Positions 1-1,544 of a stretch of 64,000 nucleotides of DNA are shown here, piece after piece. The stretch spans positions 1,012,640 to 1,076,639 of the forward strand of contig CAWBVI010000004.1 of NCBI GenBank assembly GCA_963792205.1, read 5' to 3'. Position 1 is the stretch's first letter. Each line of letters starts with the position of its first letter. Source of the DNA: an uncultured Microthrixaceae bacterium (GTDB lineage Bacteria; Actinomycetota; Acidimicrobiia; Acidimicrobiales; DATDAH01). The position numbers and the translations under genes were made by a program. The notes beneath the pieces were generated by a model. It was not told where the DNA came from, did not search any database, and saw only the letters and a program-made list of their open reading frames with translations.

Positions 1-1544
1 CAGGGGCGTGGCCGAGGTCACCACCGGCACCGGAGCCGTGGACCACTCGAGGGTCTGGCCGCCCCACGGATCGGCCTCGTGCTCCTCGGCCCGCCGGGCG
101 AAGCCCACGCGGGCGAGCCCGAGCACCAGGAGCAGGGCGCCGAGGGCGAGGACGACGGCTCCGACCGCGGCGACGGTGTTGAGCGGCTCGACCGCGTCGT
201 CGGGGTCGAAGGCGACGTAGGAGTAGGCCGGTTGGTCGAGGAGCCCGGCGATGCCCTCGGCGATGGCGAGCGTCGCCCCACCCGCCGCGACGAGCAGCGC
301 GGCGCCGACCCCGGCCAGGCGGGGGAGGGGGTGGCCCCAGATGCGGGGTGACCACCAGCACAGTGCGGCGACGACCCCGACCAGGGACGCGGCGAACACG
401 AGGTTCATCTGCCCGACCTGCCAGGTCGTGCCCATCAGCTCGAGCGATCCGATGACCGCGACGGCGCCGGCCGTGATCGCTAGGAGGAGGAGCAGCGTGC
501 TCAGCCCCGCGATGACGAGCGGTGGCCGGACCGTGAGCGAGCCCCGCTGGGCGCAGTCGCCCATCCCGCCGACCACGACGAGCACCGGCAGCAGGATGGC
601 GAAGGCCACACCGATGTACAGGGCCTCCTCGACCAGCTCCGGGCGAAAGGCCGTCTGGGCCCAGGCGCCGAAGGCGAGGGCGCCGAAGCCGGCGATGCCG
701 GCCCACACCGCGCCGCGGACCCGCTGCACCGTGCCGGTGCACACCGGGACGATCTCGGCCAGGACCCCGAGCACGGGGATGGCCATGGCGTAGACCTGCG
801 GTTGGCTGAAGACCCAGTTCAGACGGCCGGTCTCACCGATCAGGGCACCGGTGGCCCCGAACAGCACCTGGCCGTTCTGGAGGTCGAGGTAGGCCAGCAG
901 CAGCCCGGCCAGGAAGGGGGGGATCGACAGGAGCCAGAGGACGCCGGCGACGACCATGGACCACGAGAACGGCGGGACCTGGAGCAGGGTCATCTCCGGC
1001 GTCCGCAGCGCGATCACCGTCGTGACGACGCAGACCGTGCCGAGCAACAGGGCCACGACCACGAGGCCGAGGGCCAGGAGCCACAGCGCCACGCCGTCGG
1101 GGTCGGTGCCGCCGGGACCACCGTCGAGGCCGTAGCTGACGAGGAGCAGGATGCTGCCGGCGAACCAGGTCCACAGCGCCGCCGCGGCCGCCCGGGGAAC
1201 GCGATGGTGGACGCGCCCACCTGAAGGGGGACGATCGCCGTGGCCAGGCCGAGGAACAGGGGAAGGACCACGAGGAAGGTGATCCCGACCCGGTAGAGCG
1301 AGAAGAACTGGGCCGCGCCGTCGTTGCCGAGGATCTCGAGGTCGTCGAGGGTGATGCGCTCGACGCCCAGCAGGACGCCCGCCACCACCGTGAGCAGGAG
1401 GAAGAGCGCCGCACCGGCGAGCCACAGCCGGCCGATGGTGAGGTGGTTCCCCGAGCCGAGCACTGCGACCACGCCACGCGGCTCCGAGCGGGCCTCCGGA
1501 GCGGTCTCGGCGGGCGCGGCGGCGGGGGCCTCGGTCACGGTCAT
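1..1544 (-). CDS. Degenerate cytochrome c oxidase subunit I-like membrane protein lacking the metal-ligand histidines; one frameshift near 1195; runs off the window edge
   Basis: The ORF-track N-terminus (GNHLTIG...PLQVGASTIAFP) matches CtaD DHKxIG and PLQIGAPDVAFPR. Restoring one C near 1195 gives an open frame to position 1 with TVIALRTPEMTLLQVPPFSWS, WVFSQPQVY, AWAQTAF, WWSPRIWG and DPWGGQTLEWST, all collinear with CtaD motifs. Confidence 0.85.

Follow-up and report, generated by a model that had tools for sequence, protein, structure and literature searches.

The window analysed here is a stretch of 64,000 nucleotides (nt) from an uncultured Microthrixaceae bacterium of the order Acidimicrobiales (G000:C4:1012640-1076639), and its positions 1-1544 encode, on the minus strand, a homologue of cytochrome c oxidase subunit I (COX1, or CtaD) in which all six metal-binding histidines are replaced. 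This protein, which we call dCOX1, counts 524 amino acids (aa), including one residue at a break in its reading frame. It belongs to a family that is homologous to COX1 and retains its fold, that has lost cofactor ligands, and that is conserved under purifying selection within a characteristic operon structure. On balance, we think that dCOX1 is a real, selected, non-catalytic paralogue of subunit I that sits in a cofactor-free module with subunit III- and subunit IV-like partners (I'-III'-IV') and renders structural or assembly service to the oxidase encoded in the same operon. We would be much less ready to back any one particular role for that module.

A subunit I scaffold without metal ligands

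The dCOX1 gene starts with an ATG at 1544. Residues 1-117 are encoded at 1192-1544 (minus strand; GC content of third codon positions, GC3, 0.949) and match positions 2-79 of the Pfam COX1 profile with 23.3 bits when scored alone. Residues 119-515 of the 524, which are 397 aa in a different frame, lie at 1-1191 on the same strand and match profile positions 82-436 with 94.8 bits, against a gathering cut-off of 34.8 for this profile (PF00115). The distal frame runs on for 9 further codons and a TGA, up to 29 nt past the left edge of the window, into a flanking stretch that was taken as locus L009. A preliminary description, made from the letters of the window, had proposed a COX1-collinear protein of at least about 510 aa after repair of one indel near 1195, with a distal frame that leaves the window. 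Both proposals are borne out, and every scaffold motif that it named is found in the translation (GNHLTIG, PLQVGASTIAFP, LRTPEMT..VPPFSWS, WWSPRIWG and DPWGGQTLEWST). The narrower profiles score dCOX1 below their cut-offs, with 135.6 bits against 670.75 for the CtaD_CoxA equivalog TIGR02891 and 116 bits against 880 for the actinobacterial aa3 subunit I, NF050116.

We read the ligand columns from an alignment that used the genome's own canonical COX1, the copy in the operon, as the ruler. At the six histidine positions dCOX1 has Y, Q, Q, T, Q and N. The helix II histidine, a ligand of the low-spin heme, is replaced by the Tyr codon at 1293-1295 (minus strand, as for all sites that follow); across 228 aligned rows of the family this position holds Y in 66 and H in 65, or in 64 once an artefact row is removed. 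The segment HPEVY reads QPQVY at 790-804, where the CuB histidine has become Q (802-804), the D-channel Glu has become Q (796-798) and the Tyr is retained (790-792); Q occupies the CuB histidine and Glu positions in 121 and 131 of the 228 rows, respectively. The CuB His-His pair of helix VII is Q-T at 652-657 (Q at 655-657, T at 652-654), with Q at the first position in 154 rows. The H-F-H of helix X is Q-M-N at 403-411: the heme a3 ligand is Q (409-411) and the heme a ligand is N (403-405), where the family most often shows Q (74 rows), V (50) and H (32) at the former and H (48) and N (35) at the latter.

Losses of the same kind affect the proton pathways. The Arg pair RR is A and Y in dCOX1, the D-channel Asp is T, and the K-channel Thr and Lys are V and V; among the 228 rows the D-channel Asp is kept in one, and the K-channel Lys is not among the residues listed at its position. 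The six ligand substitutions and the changes to the Arg pair and both channels had been described beforehand, and all are present at, or within a few bases of, the places then assigned to them. It had been allowed that other His or Met residues might align with the ligand sites; none does. The whole protein has three histidines, at positions 34, 405 and 489, which map, on the model of an orthologue, to the beginning of helix I, the X-XI loop and the C-terminal tail; none lies in the membrane core. No substitute ligand was found near the sites, and the pocket positions show no obvious Met or Cys in this lineage. dCOX1 therefore has neither the six histidines nor the proton pathways by which a competent heme-copper oxidase or NO reductase is recognised.

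The scaffold itself is predicted to be intact. Structure prediction for the subunit alone had been proposed as a check, and AlphaFold2 returned a confident 12-helix subunit I fold for the intact orthologue P0005 (83% identical; 68-row alignment), with a predicted local distance difference test score (pLDDT) of 90.3, a predicted template modelling score (pTM) of 0.92 and twelve long helices. The top Foldseek matches of this model are 7qhm_D, 9gy6_F and 6adq_F (TMq 0.83-0.84); the best matches taken together (TMq 0.78-0.84) are subunit I of Corynebacterium and Mycobacterium supercomplexes and of Thermus caa3. With canonical CtaD (7qhm_D, 6adq_F, 2yev_A and the CtaD of the operon) dCOX1 thus has the 12-helix fold in common, and it is collinear with it at 25-27% identity. 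The family and canonical COX1 also have 49 conserved columns in common, including DHK, PLQ.GA..AFPR, R.P.M...P.F.W, W.PK and DPW...LEW. Unlike canonical CtaD, dCOX1 is without the six His, the D-channel Asp and Glu, the K-channel Thr and Lys, the Arg pair and the W..Y.P....S loop. This segment, residues 161-173 of canonical COX1 and deleted in the family, we take to be the outer (P-side) loop between helices III and IV. In all, 69 columns drop from a conservation of at least 95% in 24 canonical rows to less than 30% in the family, and at several of them Gly has given way to larger residues.

Conceivably, the old scaffold has acquired a new function that has nothing to do with the oxidase, for instance as a channel, transporter, sensor or binder of lipids or quinones. 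In favour of this are the size and age of the family and the conservation of polar Gln, Asn and Tyr at the former metal sites (QPQVY and GAWAQ are the majority residues of the family); in addition, one homologue of the 256-aa partner described below carries a cupredoxin-like extension. Against such a function, the D- and K-pathway residues are gone, and while 69 canonical columns are lost, the 30 columns conserved in the family only are mostly Gly, Ala, Leu and Val and form no new polar motif. Moreover, the module was found only inside the oxidase operon in the loci examined. We therefore regard a new, oxidase-unrelated function as improbable.

A conserved family and the break in one of its genes

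A word-seeded search with the distal 406 residues recovered about 80 full-length relatives of 515-580 aa, the nearest of which is 83% identical, 524 aa long and unbroken. A profile of 68 members was then compared with 1.84 billion representatives; from the best 150 matches, 11 shorter than 480 aa were dropped, and 137 of the 139 examined are ligand-deficient. The family thus comprises at least about 140 clusters at 50% identity or more, in genomes labelled Acidimicrobiales. Canonical COX1 scores 284-386 bits against the family profile, so that distant family members cannot be separated from it by profile score.

At the level of loci, dCOX1 is one open frame in 28 of 28 orthologous loci, namely 20 of the same order that had been picked because a prior search gave a strong hit there, and 8 further loci of that order. 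In pairwise Nei-Gojobori comparisons (8 pairs), the ratio of nonsynonymous to synonymous substitution rates (dN/dS) is 0.165-0.439 for dCOX1, 0.101-0.206 for the canonical COX1 of the operon and 0.081-0.189 for ctaB; one COX1 pair, L031/L030 (dN/dS 0.806), was dropped because the COX1 of L030 is frameshifted. The suggestion that the gene is under selection and not in decay is upheld by the intact orthologues and by ratios well below 1. We reject a decaying pseudogene as an account of the family, given the 28 open loci, dN/dS of 0.17-0.44, GC3 of 0.95 and a frame-restoring variant.

Loss of the ligands is conserved in part. As had been anticipated, no orthologue among the 28 has the full CuB histidine triad, and two have one of its three His, but the loss is not uniform across the family. 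With the frameshifted canonical gene L030_COX1 removed as an artefact, 227 rows remain: in 123 all six sites are without His, 13 have at least one CuB His, and 37 keep both ligands of the low-spin heme. Since a row counted as family only if at least one of four His was absent, these counts are partly circular, and they describe the family and do not test it.

The copy in the window differs from its orthologues in being split. On the plus strand the break lies in CCC (1191-1193) followed by GGGG (1194-1197), and one extra G in 1194-1197 restores the single 524-aa frame. The repaired translation reads ...IAFP-R-AAAAALW, in agreement with the family consensus IAFPRAAAAA. A look for the indel in sequencing reads had been advised, and the frame-restoring base was indeed seen: record 7 of run X2, a 151-nt contig over window positions 1155-1304 with one other difference, has a G put in behind 1193, which is the exact repair. 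Every sequencing run matched at most 0.23 of the sampled words, in short contigs that leave parts of the stretch uncovered, and this contig comes from another sample; it shows that an intact form exists in a near-identical strain and does not thereby show an assembly error. For the interval 700-1700 of the window, no RNA data were listed. Programmed frameshifting is ruled out by the 28 of 28 orthologues that are in one frame.

We consider that the break is probably an assembly error, given its position in a homopolymer, the GC3 of 0.95 before and after it, and the similar splits in related assemblies. In the few-contig assemblies L030, L042 and L044, canonical COX1, COX2 and COX3 are split into several tblastn pieces, and these assemblies look indel-prone; the figures for G000 (88.6% complete, 12 contigs) would likewise fit an indel-prone long-read assembly. 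Alternatively, this genome's copy could be a truly broken, recent pseudogene of a family that is itself functional, since the frameshift is present in the assembly and the intact form was seen only in one low-depth contig of another sample. A lesion of a single base inside a homopolymer, with codon composition and amino-acid conservation undiminished on both sides, speaks against such a pseudogene, as do the similar breaks in plainly essential canonical COX genes of L030, L042 and L044 and the fit of G000 to an indel-prone assembly. We therefore give a recent pseudogene little credence.

A putative three-subunit module inside an oxidase operon

dCOX1 is the second of eight closely packed minus-strand genes, in the order ctaB, dCOX1, dCOX3, a gene for a 256-aa membrane protein, COX2 fused to cytochrome c, COX1, COX3 and COX4_pro. 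The first gene, ctaB for heme O synthase (1602-2489, minus strand; Pfam UbiA, 224.5 bits), is separated from the dCOX1 start by a spacer of 57 nt (1545-1601, minus strand), and ctaA for heme A synthase (2502-3461, plus strand, with a predicted start; Pfam COX15-CtaA, 81.1 bits) diverges from it; the spacing and the divergence are both as the preliminary description had them. The ctaB orthologues upstream of dCOX1 in related loci are 59-85% identical. The third gene, dCOX3, encodes a COX3 homologue of 204 aa and 5 helices whose GTG start overlaps the dCOX1 TGA (GTGA); it scores 40.5 bits against a cut-off of 23.8 for Pfam COX3 (PF00510) and 54.5 bits against NF050119, below the cut-off of 190. 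Further downstream the spacers are 6 nt between dCOX3 and the 256-aa gene, 6 nt between the latter and COX2, 7 nt between COX2 and COX1, and 4 nt between COX3 and COX4_pro. The genome's canonical ctaD, which was to be sought, lies in this same operon, 2.6 kb downstream of dCOX1, and scores 704 bits against TIGR02891. Degenerate partners had been expected past the left edge of the window: a subunit III is there in dCOX3, but no degenerate subunit II stands between ctaB and ctaC in any locus.

The arrangement is widely conserved. The order ctaB-dCOX1-dCOX3-256-aa-COX2c-COX1-COX3 is found in 20 of 20 loci of the taxonomic order, with ctaB inverted in 2, and in 8 further loci with gaps where partners are too diverged to match. 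The expected linkage to ctaB is conserved as well: ctaB is directly upstream of dCOX1 in 27 of the 28 loci, on the same strand in 25 and inverted in two, and the 28th is cut by a contig end. Two genomes of the order, L061 and L062, are without the operon altogether. A search of the class with the window's protein (P0003) at E <= 1e-32 gave matches in 25 of 121 genomes, and the five loci retrieved from other orders hold no ligand-less copy, all having canonical six-His COX1.

The 256-aa membrane protein has no Pfam match above cut-off, and several weak but concordant lines suggest that its first approximately 140 residues resemble CtaF or the hairpin of COX3 transmembrane helices 1-2 (TM1-2). 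PF12270 aligns with residues 6-134 at 11.4 bits (E 0.35), below its gathering cut-off of 26.9, and hhalign pairs residues 93-137 with the C-terminal hairpin of COX1 (probability 89%, E 2e-6). A search against profiles of the Protein Data Bank (PDB) returns 'cytochrome c oxidase polypeptide 4' (E 0.02) and COX3 TM1-2, and the ESM Atlas neighbours, with scores of 0.92-0.93, are named 'polypeptide IV'. The AlphaFold2 model is weak (pLDDT 67.3, pTM 0.42) and has no Foldseek match at E <= 0.001; its top rows, 7q21_F ('polypeptide 4'), 6hwh_S (an entry of the same molecule) and 8hcr_H, are hints only. Compared with CtaF (PF12270) or the TM1-2 hairpin of a 7-helix COX3, which it matches weakly and concordantly over residues of about 5-140, the protein has about 110 extra residues, two or three more helices and a conserved W.DR.TGDP.VN..IRNR.M.P.E.P loop that CtaF does not have; all of these matches are below curated cut-offs, and the operon has a separate COX4_pro gene. 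In one relative (L049:7649-8734, minus strand) the homologue of the 256-aa protein is longer by about 100 aa at its C-terminus, where we read a cupredoxin-like H..C..H..M pattern from the alignment, which hints at a partner facing the electron-transfer side of the membrane.

We modelled a complex of dCOX1, dCOX3 and the 256-aa protein from a high-quality relative, L033, as three chains with custom alignments. With the 256-aa protein as partner the complex scored 0.84, a mark reached by 58 of 80 solved complexes and 2 of 110 mismatched pairs, and the best of three controls scored 0.00. The runs agreed in at least 92% of contacts, with a partner pLDDT of at least 72. The model suggests that the three proteins probably contact one another as a cofactor-free 'shadow' of the oxidase core, I'-III'-IV'.

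The placement of three genes 6-7 nt apart between ctaB and an intact ctaC-ctaD-ctaE-ctaF leads us to propose that the module would be made in step with the caa3 oxidase and would serve it. dCOX1 would keep the 12-helix scaffold, which in this lineage lacks the D and K pathways as well as every ligand of heme a, heme a3 and CuB; it would be made together with dCOX3 and the 256-aa protein, with which it would form the I'-III'-IV' core; and this core might, for instance, pair in the membrane with the active enzyme or its biogenesis machinery, or give either of them a place to dock. We favour such an association with the active oxidase, and such a role, because of the tight placement in the operon with its translational coupling, the module's own III- and IV-like partners, the loss of redox and proton residues, and the purifying selection. 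It is tempting to speculate further that the module is an obligate 'dead twin', either the silent half of an asymmetric oxidase dimer or supercomplex or a COX1-shaped partner that heme O synthase needs, although we hold this more specific idea to be rather doubtful.

Several observations weigh against a module in the service of the oxidase. The complex score may be a memory of solved complexes, and the custom alignments and three chains of this job differ from the calibration. Because CtaD-CtaE-CtaF complexes have been solved, and because of that set-up, the pass may reflect likeness and not binding. dCOX1 evolves about 2x as fast as COX1. The 37 rows that keep both low-spin heme ligands imply that some members may bind heme and that the family may lack one single role. 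In L064, a locus of another order, the 3 kb in front of an orthologous caa3-type operon contain no gene of the module, and the oxidase therefore does not need the module. Finally, the contig that restores the frame is single, 151 nt long, of depth 2 and from a different sample.

The strongest rival to service to the mature oxidase is that dCOX1 is a partner or stabiliser of CtaB, and perhaps of CtaA: a COX1-shaped stand-in that preserves the stability or activity of the synthase, or that passes heme O or heme A on. Tyr is the commonest family residue at the helix II ligand position (66 of 228 rows), and tyrosine is a common axial ligand in heme-transfer proteins. As noted above, ctaB immediately precedes dCOX1 in nearly all loci (27 of 28; same strand in 25), and it is the only copy found in the genome. 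A precedent exists as well, in that the excerpted text of one source describes a 'deranged COX1-like protein' of Acetobacter, encoded beside ctaB and without all metal-binding residues, for which a structural role was proposed (PMC10715153, citing Matsutani et al. 2014 BBA); in an excerpt of another, ctaB and ctaD carry adjacent locus tags (PMC5158111). Several features fit less well with a partner of CtaB. The pocket positions have no His and no obvious Met or Cys in this lineage; dCOX1 has COX3-like and CtaF-like partners of its own, and a stable, mature-like complex therefore fits better than a transient chaperone; and other orders of the class have ctaB without the module. We thus consider a CtaB partner a possible account, though an unlikely one, and continue to prefer the module that serves the oxidase.

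Origin of the family and known systems

The natural history of the family may be readable from its less degraded members. We built a FastTree phylogeny of 254 rows rooted on the canonical COX1s of the operons, in which the canonical rows are followed by P0232 and P0228, then by clades that keep the low-spin pair only, and then by mostly His-free clades that include the window's protein. P0232 keeps the six His, the Glu, the Tyr and the Lys but is without the D-channel Asp and the Arg pair, and may represent a form that is still active and close to where the family arose. In L055 and L056 the upstream copies keep both helix X His and the Glu and have no CuB His; L055 also keeps the helix II His, a column that is lost at a contig end in L056. 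We read this series as a stepwise loss of CuB, then of the high-spin heme and then of the low-spin heme, in a ladder that comes from FastTree only and may partly reflect the attraction of less diverged, slower-evolving rows to the outgroup or root.

A search pattern common to dCOX1 and canonical COX1 found 80 named genome loci, 67 of them canonical and 13 ligand-deficient. The ligand-deficient loci are labelled Acidimicrobiales (7), Microthrixaceae (2), Iamia, Ilumatobacteraceae and 'Actinomycetota bacterium', and one metagenome-assembled genome (MAG) is labelled Bifidobacterium.

Six histidines define the heme-copper oxidases and usually serve as the filter in surveys of the superfamily, so that a large, selected family without these ligands would be missed or mislabelled. 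In full-text literature searches we found no description of this Acidimicrobiales family, and we did find the Acetobacter precedent. As far as the excerpted description goes (PMC10715153), the Acetobacter gene has total ligand loss and adjacency to ctaB in common with dCOX1, and a retained, ligand-less COX1 beside ctaB is therefore already in print. By the same description the Acetobacter gene is a lone relic in a lineage where quinol oxidases replaced cytochrome c oxidase, whereas dCOX1 shares its operon with an intact oxidase, has COX3-like and CtaF-like partners of its own and belongs to a large family with graded ligand loss. The new elements are a large order-level family, its shadow module of three genes, the intact oxidase that the same operon encodes, and the loss of ligands in graded steps. 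Should the Acetobacter gene, as there described, have an independent origin, both cases together would suggest that CtaB depends in general on a COX1-like protein.

A practical consequence for annotation is that metabolic reconstructions of Acidimicrobiales MAGs should leave these genes out of their tally of terminal oxidases. Should the module belong to the oxidase or to its biogenesis machinery, it would represent a respiratory catalytic subunit turned pseudo-enzyme, and the accompanying series of natural intermediates could show which cofactor sites can go first and what use the bare scaffold has.

Some further observations concern names and neighbouring loci. Public sources call the family members P0025, P0038, P0072, P0076 and P0079 'cbb3-type cytochrome c oxidase subunit I'. 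As a candidate identity for the window's protein, cbb3-type subunit I (CcoN, TIGR00780) was rejected, with no ccoN match at E <= 0.01. The best matches of the window's protein are all A-type, and the cbb3 name is therefore a misnomer.

In G000 we found a single ctaB and a single degenerate module. Its other canonical oxidase locus (G000:C1:118906-122759) has COX2, a COX1 that is 49% identical to that of the operon, and COX3 nearby, with no degenerate module. The COX1 of the operon ends, to the left of the window (L009:7333-7710, minus strand), in a two-helix 'S.WP' hairpin like COX3 TM1-2 or CtaF, followed by a His- and Asp-rich acidic tail. In two loci from other orders, L050 and L063, we read ctaB, then a divergent CtaG-like gene and then ctaC-D-E, with no degenerate module (L050:8827-9900, minus strand, and L050:10138-10989, plus strand; L063:8871-10016, plus strand); by our reading, the COX2 of L050 ends in a cupredoxin-like segment and not in a cytochrome c. 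Just downstream of ctaA in the window lies an ordinary gene for a ClpS adaptor (3470-3757, plus strand; Pfam, 82.1 bits).

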